The notes under the pieces are model-generated. The model was not told where the DNA came from, ran no database searches, and worked only from the letters and a program-made list of their open reading frames with translations. A program made the position numbers and the translations under genes. Positions 22,241-28,277 of a DNA stretch of 28,277 nucleotides are shown here, piece by piece; the stretch's first letter is position 1; every line of letters starts with the position of its first letter. The stretch comes from a virus (taxonomy: Duplodnaviria > Heunggongvirae > Uroviricota > Caudoviricetes): positions 1 through 28,277 of IMG/VR virus record IMGVR_UViG_2913167280_000009. One strand, 5' to 3'.

Positions 22241-23992
22241 ATGATTCAGGACGCTTTTGTGCGCCAGCGTGCGCGACAACTTTACTGGCAGGGTTATCCG
22301 CCCGCAGAAATATCACGTCTGATGGGAATAAACCCGAACACGATTTATGCGTGGAAAAAACGCGACCAGTGGGATGAAACGCCACCCGTGCAGCGTGTCA
22401 CGCAGTCCATCGATGCGCGCCTCATCCAGCTCACTGAAAAACAGAATAAAACAGGTGGTGACTTCAAGGAAATAGACCTGCTGACCCGGCAGCTTAAAAA
22501 ACTGCATGATGGCCAGCCGGATGCGACGGCCACAGGAAAGAAAGGCCGGGCGAAAAAACTCAAAAATCATTTCACGCCGGAACAGATTGCCGCACTGCGG
22601 GAAAAAATCATCAGCAGGCTGGAGTGGCATCAGCGGGGCTGGTTTGACTCCCTGACCCTTTGCAGGGAAGCCGGGATACGTAACAGGATGATCCTGAAAT
22701 CCCGACAGATTGGGGCGACCTGGTATTTTGCACAGGAAGCTCTGCTGATGGCGCTGCGTGACGATGTGGCGCAACCTTACCAGCGTAACCAGATTTTTTT
22801 GTCTGCGTCGCGTCGTCAGGCGTTCCAGTTTAAAAGCATTATTCAGAAGGCCGCGGCTGAAGTTGATGTGGAGCTGAAAGGGGGCGATAAAATCATCCTC
22901 TCCAACGGCGCAGAGCTGCATTTTCTCGGCACTTCTGCTGCGTCGGCACAGTCCTATACGGGCAATTTTTATTTTGATGAATTTTTCTGGGTCAGTCGCT
23001 TTGCTGAACTGCGCAAGGTAGCTGGCGCTATGGCAACCCTCAGCGGACTGCGGCGCACCTACTTCTCCACGCCATCCACCGAAACGCACGAGGCATACGC
23101 CTACTGGAACGGCGACCGCTGGAACGAGAAAAAGGCCTCGCATAAACGCCAGCGTTTTTCTGTGGACTGGAAAACGCTGCATAACGGGCTTATCTGCCCT
23201 GACCGGACGTGGCGGCAAATTGTCACGCTGGAAGATGTGGTTAATCACGGCTGGAAACACACCGATATTGACGAAATCCGTGATGAAAACACCGAAGACG
23301 AGTTCCTCAATCTCTATATGTGTGAGTTTGTTCGCGAAGGGGAATCGGCATTTAACCTGAATATCCTGATTGGCTGCGGTGTTGACGGATACGACGACTG
23401 GAAAGACTGGAAACCTTTTGCTCCCCGCCCGATGGGGAATCGTCCGGTATGGATTGGGTATGACGCAAACGGCAGCAGTGGCAACGGCGACAGCGGCGCT
23501 GTGTCCGTGGTGGTTCCTCCGGCTGTTCCTGGTGGCCGTTTTCGAACGGTGGAGACGCGACGCGTTCAGGGGCTGGAGTTTGAAGAACAGGCCAGAGTCA
23601 TTGAAGAGTTCACGTGTCGCTACAACGTGGAACACATCGGCATTGATGTGACGGGCGGGAACGGGGAGGCTGTTTATCAGATAGTGAAGCGGTTTTTCCC
23701 TGCTGCTATTCCGTACACCTTCACGCTGTCATCCAAACGGTCGCTGGTACTGAAAATGCTGCAAATAATGCGTGCCGGACGGTGGGAATATGATCGTGCC
23801 GAACGCGAGCTGGTCGCGGCCTTTAACGCCGTGCGTAAGGTGAAAACACCGGGCGGCTTTATCACTTACGAAACGGACCGCGCGAGGGGGATCAGCCACG
23901 GCGACCTTGCGTGGGCAACCATGCTTGCTGTCATTAACGAACCGATTGGCGGCGAAGGAGAAAACGAGCGTTTCACGGTTATGGAGTTCTGA
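22241..23992 (+). CDS. P: Terminase large (ATPase) subunit P
   Basis: 583 aa; size, divergent position from O and adjacency to portal as P2 gpP. Confidence 0.95.
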   Translation: MIQDAFVRQRARQLYWQGYPPAEISRLMGINPNTIYAWKKRDQWDETPPVQRVTQSIDARLIQLTEKQNKTGGDFKEIDLLTRQLKKLHDGQPDATATGKKGRAKKLKNHFTPEQIAALREKIISRLEWHQRGWFDSLTLCREAGIRNRMILKSRQIGATWYFAQEALLMALRDDVAQPYQRNQIFLSASRRQAFQFKSIIQKAAAEVDVELKGGDKIILSNGAELHFLGTSAASAQSYTGNFYFDEFFWVSRFAELRKVAGAMATLSGLRRTYFSTPSTETHEAYAYWNGDRWNEKKASHKRQRFSVDWKTLHNGLICPDRTWRQIVTLEDVVNHGWKHTDIDEIRDENTEDEFLNLYMCEFVREGESAFNLNILIGCGVDGYDDWKDWKPFAPRPMGNRPVWIGYDANGSSGNGDSGAVSVVVPPAVPGGRFRTVETRRVQGLEFEEQARVIEEFTCRYNVEHIGIDVTGGNGEAVYQIVKRFFPAAIPYTFTLSSKRSLVLKMLQIMRAGRWEYDRAERELVAAFNAVRKVKTPGGFITYETDRARGISHGDLAWATMLAVINEPIGGEGENERFTVMEF

Positions 23993-25038
23993 TGAGCAGA
24001 AAAAATAAAAAAGTGCGCATGAGTTCACGCATTGATCTCTCTGATGCGCTCAGGAAAGAATCGTCGCTCAGCGCGTTCACATTTGACGGCCCTTACCGCC
24101 TGACCGGGCATGACCTGCTGGATAATATGTACTGTGCTGATAACGGGCGGTGGTATGAAACCCCGGTGGACTGGTACGGTCTGGCAAGAGCTGCCCGGCA
24201 AACGTCCTGGCATCAGTCTGCGCTTTACTTTAAGCGCAATGTATTGCTCGGTTGCTATATTCCGCACCCGCTGCTTTCCCGGCAGGATTTCTCGGCGCTG
24301 GCGCTGGACTGGTTTGTGTTCGGTAACGCATTCCTTGAGCTTCGAAGCAATATGCTCGGCGAACCGCTTAAATTACGGCACGCCCTGGCGAAATACATGC
24401 GACGCGGAAGCGATCTTGAATCATGGTGGTATGTGCAGGATGGTAAGGACGCGTTTCAGTTTCGCCCTGGCAAAGTGTGCCACCTGATGAATCCTGACAT
24501 TAACCAGGAAATCTACGGCATGCCGGAATATCTCGGCGCATTACTCTCGGCCAGCCTGTCTCATTCGGCGGACATGTTCAGAAAACTGTATTACGACAAC
24601 GGATCCCACGCCGGGTGCATCATCTACATCGGTGCAGCGCAGGTAAACCGCGAAAGCATGGACTCCCTGAAAGAAACGCTACAGGGTGCACGTGGTGGTG
24701 GTGCGTTTAAAAACGTGCTCATTCATGCGCCCAACGGGGGCAAAGAGGGGGTGCAAATTTTGCCGTTCCAGCAGATCACCGCAAAGGATGAGTTCATGAA
24801 TGTTAAGGCGGCATCCCGTGATGATGTGCTGGCTGCGCACCGCGTTCCGCCGCAATTGATGGGGGCGATGCCGGGTGAAAAAAGTGCGTTTGGTGATGTG
24901 GAGAAGGCCGCGCGGGTTTACGCAATTAACGAGCTGATGCCTGTCATGGAGGCCATGAAGCACATCAATGACTGGCTTGGCGAAGAGGTGATCCGCTTTA
25001 ATCCTTACGCACTGCTGGACACCCAGCCCACATCCTGA
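23992..25038 (+). CDS. Q: Portal (capsid vertex) protein Q
   Basis: 348 aa; size and position immediately after P as P2 gpQ. Confidence 0.95.
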   Translation: MSRKNKKVRMSSRIDLSDALRKESSLSAFTFDGPYRLTGHDLLDNMYCADNGRWYETPVDWYGLARAARQTSWHQSALYFKRNVLLGCYIPHPLLSRQDFSALALDWFVFGNAFLELRSNMLGEPLKLRHALAKYMRRGSDLESWWYVQDGKDAFQFRPGKVCHLMNPDINQEIYGMPEYLGALLSASLSHSADMFRKLYYDNGSHAGCIIYIGAAQVNRESMDSLKETLQGARGGGAFKNVLIHAPNGGKEGVQILPFQQITAKDEFMNVKAASRDDVLAAHRVPPQLMGAMPGEKSAFGDVEKAARVYAINELMPVMEAMKHINDWLGEEVIRFNPYALLDTQPTS

Positions 25039-25061
25039 CGCGCTTCGCTTGTCTGCTGCTT

Positions 25062-25088
25062 CGCCGGGGCATAAAAAATTTATGCCCC
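25062..25088. terminator. Hairpin (GGGGCATAAA...TTTATGCCCC) between convergent Q (+) and the downstream - strand ORF
   Basis: Perfect 10-bp arms around an AT-rich centre; located between two convergent stop codons. Confidence 0.5.
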
Positions 25089-25104
25089 GACTCTTCAGCT
25101 CTGC

Positions 25105-25809
25105 TTAACGAAGTGCTGATGGCGCTCGCTTTTTCAGGTGATTAGCGATGTGCTTTTTCATGTGCATAACAACATCGCCCCAGGCTTCTTCGCTGGGTTT
25201 ATTGATAAATACGCGAACAGAAATATCGTCTTCCACCCGGACTCTCAGAGACACCCGTTCCGCATCTACTGAATATAATTCAAGTGCAATAACCACGCTT
25301 ACCGGGTAGCTGCTGTCAGATGACTTAACCCAGGTTCGCACGGCCATGCGGAAAATATTGTCTGGTGCAGATGCGATATTGTGGACTGAAAGAGGCCTAA
25401 AATCCGCCGCTGTCTTACATGGCAAGCCTGTCTCCACGTAGCGGTGCAGGTCGCCATCATCGTCTTTCCAGTACATGGATGGAAGCCCCAGCCATTCTTC
25501 ATAGAAATCAATCAGCCTTGCTGCTTCATCCCGCAAAATTTGAGCTGCCTCAGCGCGTTTTTCTTCAGCTTCACGATTGATCTGGCATAAATCATTAAAG
25601 TGGCTCATGACATTATCCTCTTTTGAGTTGATGCCTGCCGCTATTCTGACTTTGCCCGGGTTCTCCTGCAAGCTGGTTATTCCTTCAGATAATTTCACAA
25701 CATCTCCAACCTTGTAGCCATCATCGCCGGGCGGGTGCTTACGCAACCCCGCAACTCTGACGACATATTCTCGCTGCCTCAGTGCGATTTTGACGGCCTT
25801 ACCTTTCAC
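25105..25809 (-). CDS. Hypothetical protein (accessory cargo); alternative start at 25608 (MSHF, RBS GAGGA) would give 167 aa
   Basis: Open frame of 234 aa from GTG at 25809; no family recognised; lower GC than the structural genes. Confidence 0.5.
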   Translation of the reverse strand: MKGKAVKIALRQREYVVRVAGLRKHPPGDDGYKVGDVVKLSEGITSLQENPGKVRIAAGINSKEDNVMSHFNDLCQINREAEEKRAEAAQILRDEAARLIDFYEEWLGLPSMYWKDDDGDLHRYVETGLPCKTAADFRPLSVHNIASAPDNIFRMAVRTWVKSSDSSYPVSVVIALELYSVDAERVSLRVRVEDDISVRVFINKPSEEAWGDVVMHMKKHIANHLKKRAPSALR

Positions 25810-25839
25810 CCCATCAAATCAGAATCCCTCACGTATTTT

Positions 25840-26089
25840 TCACGCTCAGCGTGAGAAATATGGCCATTCTGTTGTGTCGCTGCGACATCGTTCAGGGAAT
25901 GCTATTTACCCCCTGAAACGCGGGCTGTTCCCCCGTCACCTGCGCGCAGAAAAAACGCGTTTTTTTGTGCACGCACGGATCCTTGACGGATCCAGCTGCC
26001 ACGCGGGCCGGAAGGGCAAAAAGTCGTTCAAAAAAATTGTGCAAATTTGTGCACTATTGTGCAGCAGGGCGATGCGCGATTATCGCCCT
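25840..26089. promoter_or_regulatory. Operator-rich intergenic region: palindromes TCACGCT-C-AGCGTGA (25840-25854), TGTCGC-T-GCGACA (25875-25887), AAAAAACGCGTTTTTT (25950-25965), paired GGATCC sites (25977-25993), three TTGTGCA repeats at exact 10-bp period (26037-26063), inverted repeat AGGGCGAT-N8-ATCGCCCT (26066-26089)
   Basis: All read directly from the sequence; lies between the stop of the 179-aa ORF and the start of the 234-aa ORF. Confidence 0.5.
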
Positions 26090-26103
26090 GGTTTGAGAGG
26101 AAA

Positions 26104-26643
26104 TTAGGTGTTCTTTTTACCTTCTGTCAGTGGGCATAACCATCCACTATTTACATCACTTAGCTGATGCGTTCTTTCCTCGTGCTTCTCCTGCCACAAT
26201 GCTTTTCCGCCAGCCTTTATGATGGCTCTTTCAACATCCCGCTCGTATCGCAAGGGCTGAAATACGTTATTAATGAAATATTCGCTTATGTCCGAAAGCA
26301 ATACTGCAAAATTATTGGTTTGTTGCGCCGTTCGGCTATGCAGCAAAGCGGCATACTTTAATGCGTCCTGTGCTTTCTGGAATTTAAGTGCATGGTCAGT
26401 TGCGATTTTTTCCAGTTCAGCGATGCGCTTTTTTGCTGTTTCCAGTTCATCCAGCAGTGCCAGCATGTCTTCCGGTCCAGCCAGAAGTCTGAAGGTGTTG
26501 ATCGCGTCAATATCCACACCGCAATCTTTAAGTTCCTGTTCGCTTAACAAATCATCATCAACTGGCAATATTAACAGGCGTTCCATTGCCGGAATTGCCC
26601 GTTCTGCTGCCATTTGTAGTGCCTGATAGTCAATCTTGCTCAC
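26104..26643 (-). CDS. Hypothetical protein (acidic, helical); co-transcribed with upstream ORF
   Basis: 179 aa; start overlaps the stop of the preceding ORF (ATGA coupling); no family recognised with confidence. Confidence 0.5.
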   Translation of the reverse strand: MSKIDYQALQMAAERAIPAMERLLILPVDDDLLSEQELKDCGVDIDAINTFRLLAGPEDMLALLDELETAKKRIAELEKIATDHALKFQKAQDALKYAALLHSRTAQQTNNFAVLLSDISEYFINNVFQPLRYERDVERAIIKAGGKALWQEKHEERTHQLSDVNSGWLCPLTEGKKNT

Positions 26644-27164
26644 TGGTTGTCTCCTTTGTGTTGCGCCAGCTCTTCCTGCGCCTGCATCATGCGATTGACC
26701 TGAACGCGTGTGCGTCGAACGGCAAAATTAAATTGAAACATGAGCCGGAACATTTCTGAGGCTTCCGTGTGAGCATCGCGGAGAGGTGACAGGCGGTACA
26801 GTTCTGCCTCCGTAGCTTGTTGAATCAATGACAGATCAAATTGAAGTGCGGGTCTGGTACATTTTGCACGTCTGGCAGCAAGCTCCGGCATCAGTTTCTT
26901 AACGAAGGTGTTTTGCACCGCTTTGTTGAGTTGTGTCTGCATCCAAATCGCAAATTTCAGCGAACGCATAAGTTTGATAGCCTCGGGCAGCGGCAGATAG
27001 ATCATGCTGGTAGATTTGGGTGGTTGGTGAATCATCTTCACGGATACGCGATTTCGCAGCGTTCGGAAAATCGTGTTCCCAACAACAGCTTCTACGGATA
27101 CAGGACAGGGAGCCAGACCAGCCCGCAGTGCTTCTTTCATTAGCATGTATTCGTATTTTTTCAT
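26640..27164 (-). CDS. Hypothetical protein; third gene of the parM-parR operon
   Basis: 174 aa; RBS GAGGAA 6-7 nt upstream of ATG; only 60 bp downstream of parR with no convincing terminator between. Confidence 0.5.
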   Translation of the reverse strand: MKKYEYMLMKEALRAGLAPCPVSVEAVVGNTIFRTLRNRVSVKMIHQPPKSTSMIYLPLPEAIKLMRSLKFAIWMQTQLNKAVQNTFVKKLMPELAARRAKCTRPALQFDLSLIQQATEAELYRLSPLRDAHTEASEMFRLMFQFNFAVRRTRVQVNRMMQAQEELAQHKGDNQ

Positions 27165-27224
27165 CGTGTTTTCCTCGTGCGGGGCGACAGTGCACCCCGA
27201 TAAAATTAAAAGCCGTCAAATTCG

Positions 27225-27536
27225 TCATTCAGGAAATAATGCCCGGATATTCCCTGCTATCTGACTGGTTATCTGTGCGGTTGATACTGGCTGTGACGCG
27301 GGGGATTCTGTCCTGGTTTGTGTCACTGATAACGCTTCATCATCAGCCCATGCAGCCAGTCGGTAAGCCTCTGCCGGATTCATCTTCAGAAGTGCCAGCC
27401 CGGCCAGAAAAGCCACGCGCTGGCCGCTTTTGCGGGCTTCTGGTGTAAGGCTGTCCAGCCAGGCGCATGCTTCGCCTTCGTTCTTGACGGCGGCTGGCTT
27501 CAGATAGAAACTTATTCTTCTGGTTAATGTCGCCAT
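27225..27536 (-). CDS. parR: ParR/StbB-like partition adaptor (centromere-binding)
   Basis: 103 aa; RISFYLKPAAV...AWLDSLTPEARKSGQRVAFLAGLAL aligns with R1 ParR (TIAFKLNPDVN...DTLDSIPQGERSRLNRAALTAGLAL); directly downstream of the parM homologue. Confidence 0.75.
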   Translation of the reverse strand: MATLTRRISFYLKPAAVKNEGEACAWLDSLTPEARKSGQRVAFLAGLALLKMNPAEAYRLAAWADDEALSVTQTRTESPASQPVSTAQITSQIAGNIRALFPE

Positions 27537-27542
27537 GGAGGG

Positions 27543-28277
27543 TTACTCCTTATCCATAGCGTACAGACCGTTAACCAGAGCAAACTGTGGCACCCCGTCT
27601 GTGATGAAATTCGCATTGACTCCATAGACTTCACGGACTGCGGGTGCCACAATCTCCGCTCCTCCACCGACAACCAGCACCCGCCCGTAACCCGAAAAGC
27701 CCGCGAGTGCGCGGATCACGCGTTGTTTCAGTGTCTCCTCCTTTTCACGAATAACCGCCATCAGGCTGTTGTAATGCGCGTCATTGTGAATGTGCTGGCG
27801 TAGCCAGGCTTCATCGTGACGGTGCTCAATAATGGTATTGGCGATGTGGTGACTGGTACGCATACCGTTAGTGGCCATCACCGACAGCACGGCATCAGCC
27901 ATCAGGGAAACGCCTACGTGTGGATCGCAAAACACCTGGCTGATGCCTGCCAGTTGCCCCTGAACCTTTGCCACATCCAGCGTGGTTCCGCCCAAATCCA
28001 CAATCAGCAGGGATTCAAACGGACTCATGTCAGCCAGTGCCTTAAAGCCAGCCGGAATGGATTCAGGCATAACCCGCACGTTACGGATAGTGAATGCCTC
28101 ACCGTTCTGGCACTCCACCGGGCGCATGACGTTCGCTTTTTTGCGGTTGATGTTGGCCATGTCCGGCTGTGCGTTTGTGTCGAAATATTCGCTCAGTGGC
28201 AGGGTGACAACCACATCCACTTCCTGTGGTGTGATGCCTGATTTGACCAGTGCGTGGTGAATGGCAATGACATTCAC
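27543..28277 (-). CDS. parM: ParM/StbA actin-like partition ATPase, N-terminally truncated by the window edge
   Basis: Colinear matches to R1 ParM: IAIHHAL, ITPQEVD, RKKAN, VMPESIPAGF, SLLIVDLGGTTLDVA, GVSL, FSGYGRVLVVGGGAE, LVNGLY. Confidence 0.85.
   Translation of the reverse strand: MNVIAIHHALVKSGITPQEVDVVVTLPLSEYFDTNAQPDMANINRKKANVMRPVECQNGEAFTIRNVRVMPESIPAGFKALADMSPFESLLIVDLGGTTLDVAKVQGQLAGISQVFCDPHVGVSLMADAVLSVMATNGMRTSHHIANTIIEHRHDEAWLRQHIHNDAHYNSLMAVIREKEETLKQRVIRALAGFSGYGRVLVVGGGAEIVAPAVREVYGVNANFITDGVPQFALVNGLYAMDKE

Follow-up and report, generated by a model that had tools for sequence, protein, structure and literature searches.

Separable accessory genes on both sides of a putative cos region in a P88-like prophage of Escherichia coli

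Do the small genes between the portal gene and the partition genes parM and parR of a P2-family prophage work together as a defence or anti-defence island, or do they merely share a site? The question is raised by a 28,277-nucleotide stretch of viral DNA (IMG/VR record IMGVR_UViG_2913167280_000009; hereafter the window), in which an initial annotation made from the sequence alone had proposed such an island at 25105-27164, composed of three open reading frames (ORFs) that we number ORF1 to ORF3 from the portal side. The best explanation that we can offer, and on which our own judgement is evenly balanced, is a cos-proximal hotspot of a P88-like phage holding three independently shuffled single-gene modules and not one system. 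Indeed, ORF1 and ORF2/ORF3 are two unrelated cassettes on opposite sides of a conserved non-coding module that probably contains cos, and ORF3 and ORF2 are in turn separable from each other, so that the single island first proposed falls apart.

Separable genes at the gpA-gpQ hotspot

The three genes, all on the minus strand, are as follows.

25105-25608, minus strand: ORF1, coding sequence of 167 amino acids (aa), allele of phrog_5091 (PHROG match, homologue alignment, structural model, substitution rates)
26104-26643, minus strand: ORF2, 179 aa, Ead/Ea22-like, acidic with an isoelectric point (pI) of 5.1 (Pfam, alignments)
26640-27164, minus strand: ORF3, orphan of 174 aa, basic (pI 10.2) and predicted to be helical (ORF call, searches, substitution rates)

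Their independence is seen in the loci of relatives. Genes of the ORF1 family beside the portal gene combine freely with unrelated right-hand cargo, and the close relatives of ORF1 (53-86% identity) always abut the portal 3' end, with unrelated cargo across the putative cos. In at least six genomes ORF3 is intact (97% identical) while only 24 codons of Ea22 remain next to it, with a YafO cassette after this remnant. Phage P884B11 carries an Ea22-like gene with the same C-terminal domain as ORF2 directly after ParR and has no ORF3, and in another genome an Ea22-like gene is found in place of ORF3. That ORF3, Ea22-like and ORF1 genes are found apart argues against an obligate two-gene system such as a toxin-antitoxin; ORF3-ORF2 was rejected as an obligate pair on the same two grounds, ORF3 next to a truncated Ea22 and an Ea22-like gene without ORF3.

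By its sequence, the window is a P88-like (Xuanwuvirus, P2-family) E. coli prophage, positions 1-25000 being about 94% identical to Escherichia phages Chuche, P88 and P884B11 (Peduoviridae, Xuanwuvirus). The variable segment is bounded by conserved genes.

23992-25038, plus strand: portal gene, gpQ homologue (ORF; portal annotation in all relatives), conserved left boundary of the hotspot
27225-27536, minus strand: ParR-type partition protein, Plasmid_stab_B (Pfam), conserved right boundary of the variable segment
27543-28277, minus strand: ParM (Pfam ParM), C-terminal 244 aa of a gene that runs off the window

The gene order in every relative fetched is gpA, ParM, ParR, variable genes and portal, with gpA immediately upstream of parM; as the window ends within parM, the position of gpA is taken from these relatives. 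The cargo is therefore located between gpA and gpQ homologues, at the hotspot of P2-like phages that was described by Rousset et al. 2022 (PMC9122126) and is the site of P2 old and tin. In this respect the initial annotation, which had pointed to a variable P2-like hotspot near cos and the portal gene, was right on position, and the content does differ between prophages: among about 14 loci of close relatives we counted at least eight arrangements, all within conserved flanks. Its remark that the ORFs are AT-richer than the structural genes was also confirmed, with a GC content of 0.484 across 25105-27164 versus 0.540 for the portal gene and 0.541 for the terminase gene. Other cargo at the same place in relatives includes YafO, TumE, toxin-antitoxin and AAA+/S8-peptidase modules. 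Besides being exchanged, cargo at the hotspot decays, as in three loci (L025, L027 and L028) where the slot holds frameshifted or truncated Ea22-like pseudogenes plus an ISVsa5 insertion.

Both the hotspot and close homologues of two of our genes are already on record. A partition system is present at gpA-gpQ in about one quarter of P2-like phages (Rousset et al. 2022, PMC9122126), and Table S5A of that study (PMC9122126) lists the arrangement StbA + Plasmid_stab_B + zf-C4_ClpX + hypothetical (WP_022631071) + Ead_Ea22 (WP_022631072) + hypothetical. We found that WP_022631071 and WP_022631072 are the homologues of ORF3 and ORF2 in the relative locus L001, and no record that either had been tested. 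On the partition side, a relative locus (L002, 5950-6060) displays, from the end of gpA to the parM leader, two copies about 60 bp apart of the inverted repeat CGGGATT-N6-AATCCCGTAAA, which are candidates for the parC centromere and ParR operator of the phage partition system.

The gene models had to be revised on the portal side, where the initial annotation gave ORFs of 234, 179 and 174 aa: all three are real, and the first is 167 aa long. Mechanical ORF calling had returned 25105-25809 on the minus strand, a frame of 234 aa that we rejected on the family match, the homologue starts, a broken upstream extension and relaxed selection on it. The match to phrog_5091 (E-value (E) = 3.2e-52, profile positions 1-163 of 164) is confined to residues 67-233 of this frame; homologues are mostly 167 aa with an MSHF start (9 of 15 clusters), the length that RefSeq also gives in L001; and a stop in L001 and a frameshift in L005 break up the 66-codon extension, whose ratio of nonsynonymous to synonymous substitution rates (dN/dS) is 0.3-1.75, mostly at least 0.6. 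ORF1 is thus taken to start at the ATG at 25608, which has a GAGGA Shine-Dalgarno sequence ahead of it. The first ~40 codons of the extension fall in DNA conserved across P88-like phages without ORF1, and a 42-codon ORF within this conserved cos-side module (window 25684-25809; L008 205-333; L003 2605-2733) is annotated as hypothetical in P88 and P884B11. Fused in frame to ORF1 in the window, it produces the spurious 234-aa ORF. As a gene in its own right it was rejected, being frameshifted or stopped early in some relatives with dN/dS mostly at least 0.6, and is probably not a gene judging from these sequences.

The genes themselves are under purifying selection. dN/dS amounts to 0.09-0.21 for ORF1 and 0.44-0.62 for ORF2, and to 0.2-0.3 for divergent ORF3 allele pairs, down to 56% nucleotide identity, which makes ORF3 a real gene; with values below 1 throughout, all three evolve as coding sequence. 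Shine-Dalgarno sequences precede each of them. ORF3 and ORF2 overlap by 4 nt, as had been noted as a sign of coupling, although the overlap (CAGTGAGC) reads GTGA and not ATGA, with GTG as the start codon of ORF2.

On the portal side, ORF1 is carried by a cassette set against a terminator of the backbone.

25101-25684, minus strand: ORF1 cassette, an insert of about 584 bp that P88-like phages without ORF1 do not have (intergenic alignment of ten loci)
25065-25089, no strand assigned: perfect 11-bp inverted repeat CGGGGCATAAA/TTTATGCCCCG with A/T runs on either side (inverted-repeat search), predicted bidirectional terminator of the portal gene and ORF1

In ORF1-less relatives the inverted repeat directly follows the cos module and is thus part of the backbone, so the cassette would be an insert of the moron type, with the putative cos on one side and the portal terminator on the other. 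The same slot holds a 174-aa gene in 3 of 6 P88-like loci of an unbiased sample; this occupant matches phrog_5091 (E = 1.4e-67), aligns with ORF1 end to end at 24% identity and shares with it the invariant motif YE..L.LPS..W...YV..G. Taken together with the presence of ORF1 in only 31 of 5,426 complete E. coli genomes, these occupants make ORF1 a rare allele of a common family, whose alleles are 24-86% identical inside a ~94% identical backbone. From sequence comparison, ORF1 is a rare allele of the hyper-divergent phrog_5091 family, which is found only in P88-like phages. Its product (pI 5.9) is soluble, with no toxin or signal-peptide features. The structural model is confident, with a predicted local distance difference test (pLDDT) score of 84.5 and a predicted template modelling (pTM) score of 0.80, and consists of a long N-terminal helix, an antiparallel sheet and a C-terminal helix; Foldseek found nothing significant for it in PDB and BFVD, and a tblastn search of 50,697 phage records with ORF1 gave no match.

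ORF3 is the least connected of the three. It has no membrane segment, and no match was obtained in Pfam, PHROGs, NCBIfam and PADLOC, or in PDB by sequence and by profile. A word-indexed search of 5.8 billion clusters retrieved eight clusters, and an exhaustive HMMER profile search of 1.84 billion representatives retrieved three cluster representatives; alignment of ORF3 to the Ea22 alignment with hhalign was negative. The AlphaFold2 model is helical with a pLDDT of 56, too poor for a fold search. All homologues with readable context lie in the gpA-gpQ region of P2-like prophages, and the ORF3 allele occurs in 29 of the 5,426 genomes.

A conserved non-coding module and its candidate cos site

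What separates the two cassettes? The initial annotation had seen there a 290-bp operator-dense regulatory region. The repeats that it noticed are real, namely several palindromes and four TGCACAA copies on one strand, of which three are spaced at exactly 10 bp; the gap between ORF1 and ORF2 is in fact 495 bp (25609-26103), and the repeats belong to conserved backbone that is most likely cos.

25685-26063, no strand assigned: conserved backbone module, putative cos region (conserved across P88-like records and genomes)
25919-26063, no strand assigned: best-conserved core within the module (also present in phiT5282H, in another P2-like prophage and in a satellite-like element)
25922-25940, minus strand: candidate cohesive-end 19-mer GGTGACGGGGGAACAGCCC (best-conserved block; comparison with P2 cosL)
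26037-26063, minus strand: three TGCACAA direct repeats with exact 10-bp phasing, the fourth being at 25965-25971 (repeat search); candidate protein-binding sites, e.g. for terminase

These 379 bp (25685-26063) are 88-91% identical in all P88-like phage records, with or without ORF1, and are present in 1,116 of the 5,426 genomes whatever the cargo. The core is conserved even better, at 95-99% identity in about 1,000 genomes, which is above the conservation of the flanking genes. In a ten-locus alignment, each right-hand cargo brings its own terminator and meets the backbone at the first TGCACAA (26063). The core also crosses phage lineages: Enterobacter phage phiT5282H (Novemvirus) has it between the portal gene and a cargo of the AAA+/S8-peptidase type, and it takes the same position, with cargo on one side and portal on the other, in a P2-like prophage of another kind. 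Finally, a copy of 80% identity resides in a ~12.5-kb element inserted between gcd and hpt (NZ_AP042483.1, ~141.6-154.1 kb; L023/L024). This element encodes two integrases, a helix-turn-helix regulator, an Icd-like protein, a toprim primase, an Ogr/Delta-like zinc finger, MazEF and a 423-aa P2-family major capsid protein, with no portal or terminase. From its gene content it looks like a satellite of P88-like helpers that, unlike P4, has its own capsid protein. Of the three occurrences this is the most telling: satellite P4 shares cos with its helper P2 (PMC9122126), and sharing this one non-coding block with a presumptive helper is what is expected of cos.

The finer sequence comparison points in the same direction. 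The TGCACAA repeats and a block, GCGCGCAGGTGACGGGGGAACAGCCCGCG, with few variable positions are conserved in all five aligned loci, and around the 19-mer 28 of 29 positions are identical between the window and the satellite-like locus. Compared with P2 cosL (GGCGAGGCGGGGAAAGCAC), the 19-mer at 25940-25922 is identical at 13 of 19 positions, which is tied-best in the window and, for the window alone, at chance level; the homologous 19-mer is the unique best P2 cosL match in three other loci (15/19, 14/19 and 13/19). Moreover, the module occupies the same position as P2 cos, from the hotspot to the portal 3' end. Together with the chance-level identity in the window, two observations weigh against cos: BLAST of the P2 cos region against the gap yielded no significant alignment, and the linear record of P884B11 (LR595891.1) starts and ends at a point corresponding to 26018|26019, which is inside the module, about 80 bp from the 19-mer, a break that may stem either from mapped termini or from the assembly. 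A literature search on the candidate cos sequences found no papers, and the P88 and phiSM papers gave no cos data. All in all, we consider it quite probable, from position, conservation and sharing, that the module 25685-26063 contains cos. If this holds, ORF1 and ORF2/ORF3 lie at opposite ends of the virion DNA, ORF3/ORF2 at the extreme right and ORF1 at the extreme left, and become adjacent only when the genome is circular or integrated.

The module has other features of its own. Conserved palindromes at 25834-25860 and 25950-25996 (TATTTCTCACGCTGAGCGTGAAAAATA, AAAAAACGCGTTTTTT and two GGATCC sites separated by 5 bp) might serve to bind proteins or to bend the DNA. An Rfam search of 24900-27600 at E up to 1 gave only a sub-threshold gyrA-leader match on the portal/ORF1 terminator. 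In some E. coli genomes, such as NZ_CP172185.1 (strain GF60) and NZ_CP135671.1 (strain TUM9803), the P88-like cos module is present in up to four copies and near-identical ORF1 in up to three, which suggests polylysogeny by closely related P88-like prophages.

Expression and possible functions

When would these genes be made? Two further features bear on ORF2 and its surroundings.

26065-26090, minus strand: 9-bp GC-rich hairpin just past the ORF2 stop, borne by the cargo (z = -3.7), predicted ORF3-ORF2 terminator
26439-26658, minus strand: 5' part of ORF2 together with the final 19 nt of ORF3, likely recombination junction (DNA-level matches)

Between ParR and ORF3, a sequence scan detected neither a promoter nor a terminator consensus, and a sigma-70 promoter scan returned nothing on the minus strand, leaving ORF1 and ORF3 without an assignable promoter. 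The hairpin after ORF2 is followed by a weaker hairpin and a T-run at 26039-26054. The absence of a promoter or terminator between ParR and ORF3, combined with the hairpin and T-run after ORF2, makes ORF3/ORF2 the presumable tail of the gpA-parMR unit. We have moderate confidence in this transcription, in agreement with the initial annotation, which had placed both genes in the parM-parR operon. ORF3 and ORF2 would then be the last genes of a rightward early unit (gpA, parM, parR and cargo) ending at the cargo-borne terminator, and we infer that their products probably appear during phage replication, once infection or induction has taken place. ORF3 would be translated in step with ORF2 without depending on it. 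A regulation of another kind, through an SOS antirepressor like Tum of phage 186, was considered and rejected: the LexA box search remained at chance level with no box upstream of ORF1, ORF2 or ORF3, and within 25,000-27,600 only two sites differ from the LexA box by one mismatch, both of them in coding sequence of ORF2 and ORF3.

ORF2 is the gene for which a family can be named, contrary to the first impression that none of the three had a recognisable one. Pfam Ead_Ea22 (PF13935) matches residues 2-121 with 76.9 bits for a cut-off of 27, and an alignment with lambda Ea22 (E = 1e-5) covers the N-terminal motif and the LALLDE-type coiled-coil segment. Ea22 proteins are built of a short N-terminal domain, a coiled coil and a C-terminal domain (PMC10834534), and ORF2 has the same three parts, the coiled coil being read from the alignment. 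Among ORF2 relatives the insert is variable and the C-terminal domain distinct. This 83-residue domain occurs only in E. coli Ea22-like proteins and, among the loci examined, only in P88-like phages; a search with it retrieved only four near-identical clusters, no match was found in PDB by sequence, and nothing aligns with lambda Ea22 beyond residue ~120. In contrast to the C-terminal part, the beginning of the gene is widely shared at the DNA level. Genes of the ea22 type that match the segment 26439-26658 (approximately the first 200 nt of ORF2) at 86-88% identity are found in more than 100 Stx/lambdoid phage records, and E. coli and E. albertii carry them on non-mobilizable plasmids of ~90-100 kb; from these matches, the segment is likely a recombination junction that unrelated phage families share. 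Lambda Ea22 is an early, tetrameric and pro-lysogenic protein with no known partner, and the only tested Ea22 phenotype is developmental; both the pro-lysogenic phenotype and tetramer formation are known only for lambda and Stx-phage Ea22. The initial annotation had itself allowed that the ORFs might turn out to be regulatory genes, and this comes close to being the case for ORF2, with a pro-lysogenic protein as the tested member of its family. By analogy, and with low confidence, ORF2 may act like lambda Ea22, as an oligomeric adaptor whose binding to a protein of host or phage early in development shifts the course of that development or the physiology of the host. Equally tentative, ORF3 might be a nucleic-acid- or protein-binding partner that is not essential to ORF2, and ORF1, from the non-enzymatic alpha/beta fold of its model, a stoichiometric binder (inhibitor or adaptor) expressed as a moron.

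Is there then any ground for the defence or anti-defence role that was initially proposed? Computation gave it no positive support. The HMMs of PADLOC-DB 2.0 matched no family for ORF1, ORF2, ORF3 and ParR at E up to 1; BLASTP of ORF1-3 against P2 old, tin and orf91 revealed no similarity, every pair with Old or Tin having E > 3; and Pfam found in ORF1-3 no ATPase or TOPRIM and no enzymatic or sensor domain. There is thus no computational evidence for either role. We estimate it to be unlikely that the lysogen produces one or more of these proteins and thereby stops incoming phages, in the manner of P2 Tin and Old. Such anti-phage defence or superinfection exclusion fits the genomic setting, since the hotspot is that of old/tin, was designated in a 2026 survey as the main defence hotspot of P2-like phages, and supplied three protective systems out of eight further ones tested against phage (Rousset et al. 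2022, PMC9122126). Neighbouring alleles of the hotspot hold YafO, TumE and AAA+/S8-peptidase cargo, the divergence of the ORF1 family within a backbone of high identity fits an arms race, and ORF1 is moron-like with its own Shine-Dalgarno sequence and terminator. What speaks against it, besides the empty PADLOC and old/tin searches and the lack of any nuclease, ATPase, sensor or membrane segment found, is that ORF3/ORF2 are co-oriented with the early replication operon with no promoter detected, whereas old and tin have their own leftward promoter, and that the one Ea22 phenotype tested concerns development. In addition, some genomes harbour three ORF1-bearing prophages, so that ORF1 does not obviously exclude close relatives. 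The converse role, in which small early proteins neutralise host immune or repair proteins at infection or induction, has support of its own: the three proteins are small, soluble and non-enzymatic, ORF3/ORF2 sit at the end of the early unit, near SSB and ClpX-zinc-finger genes in relatives, and divergence is fast within a narrow taxonomic range. Nevertheless, they bear no similarity to known anti-defence proteins, no dedicated anti-defence library having been searched, and of the 1,511 P2-like elements in the 2026 survey only 28 had known anti-defence genes; we rate anti-defence or host takeover as unlikely too.

Two other accounts fare worse. The 4-nt overlap with its translational coupling, the opposite charges of the two products (pI 10.2 versus 5.1), the adjacent partition system and the toxin-antitoxin cargo at the slot in relatives could evoke an addiction pair, with basic ORF3 as toxin and acidic ORF2 as antitoxin, that would aid the plasmid-like maintenance by ParMR. 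This is highly unlikely given the genomes in which ORF3 persists intact beside the 24-codon remnant of Ea22, the Ea22-like gene with the same C-terminal domain that does without ORF3, and the absence of any toxin or antitoxin domain in Pfam, NCBIfam or PADLOC. It is hardly credible that recombination left mere junk DNA here, with the ORFs as non-functional remnants or fortuitous reading frames: their narrow distribution without known domains, and the pseudogenised Ea22 copies and insertion sequence in the same slot elsewhere, are outweighed in our view by the dN/dS of ORF1 and ORF3, which stays at 0.09-0.3 between alleles with nucleotide identity as low as 55%, by canonical Shine-Dalgarno sequences on all three genes, and by full-length conservation across divergent alleles together with the confident ORF1 model. 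A more novel proposal, doubtful although worth stating, is that the phrog_5091 family, settled in the cos-portal slot of P88-like phages, is a new single-gene specificity determinant (for exclusion, anti-defence or anti-satellite activity) whose variable surface tracks a fast-evolving partner and that, separately, ORF3 and the Ea22-like gene make up a new early counter-defence module.

The explanation that we favour, of independently shuffled single-gene modules, has its own weak sides. The ORF3 model, at its pLDDT, is unreliable. The co-transcription with parMR is weakly founded, as it depends on missing consensus promoters and terminators in weak scans. Any transfer of function by analogy with Ea22 is weakened by the C-terminal domain, which in ORF2 has no relation to the one in lambda Ea22. 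Finally, the toxin-antitoxin and AAA+/S8-peptidase cargo at the same place keeps a defence role live.

For the present, the value of this work lies mostly in annotation, as gene models are corrected, a supposed regulatory region is probably the cos of a prophage group found in about one fifth of complete E. coli genomes, and the hotspot extends to both sides of this putative cos. Should any of the three genes prove active against phages or against defences, the repertoire of the P2-family hotspot would gain a new small domain-less effector and, in the case of ORF2, an Ea22-like protein outside lambdoid phages would have a function for the first time.

Comparison with known phage systems

How does this locus relate to systems that are better known? 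As in the P2 old/tin hotspot, the cargo lies between the replication endonuclease and the portal gene, beside the putative cos, and its content varies among near-identical prophages. The locus departs from it in the orientation of ORF3/ORF2 with the early operon, old and tin having a leftward promoter of their own, in having variable DNA to either side of the putative cos, where the portal side forms a single-gene slot of its own, and in the lack of similarity of ORF1, ORF2 and ORF3 to old, tin or any PADLOC model. For ORF2 and lambda Ea22, the likeness comprises a similar size, a location among early accessory genes, the N-terminal motif and the coiled-coil segment; the C-terminal domains are unrelated, and ORF2 is next to parMR and the putative cos in a P2-family phage whereas its lambda counterpart is in the exo-xis region.

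Lysogenic-conversion morons are inserted between cos and portal in P2-like phages, an example being ctx of Pseudomonas phage phiCTX. ORF1 resembles them as a single gene with its own ribosome-binding site and terminator inserted between the putative cos and portal, and differs from them in having no toxin or signal-peptide features. As to the module itself, it is comparable to the cos of P2, 186 and P4 in lying between the hotspot and the portal 3' end, in containing a G-rich 19-mer with 13-15 of 19 positions identical to P2 cosL (the 13 of the window alone being at chance level), and in being shared with a satellite-like element, as P4 shares its cos with P2. It stands apart from P2 cos in its lack of overall sequence similarity and in the phased TGCACAA repeats that mark the P88-like module.

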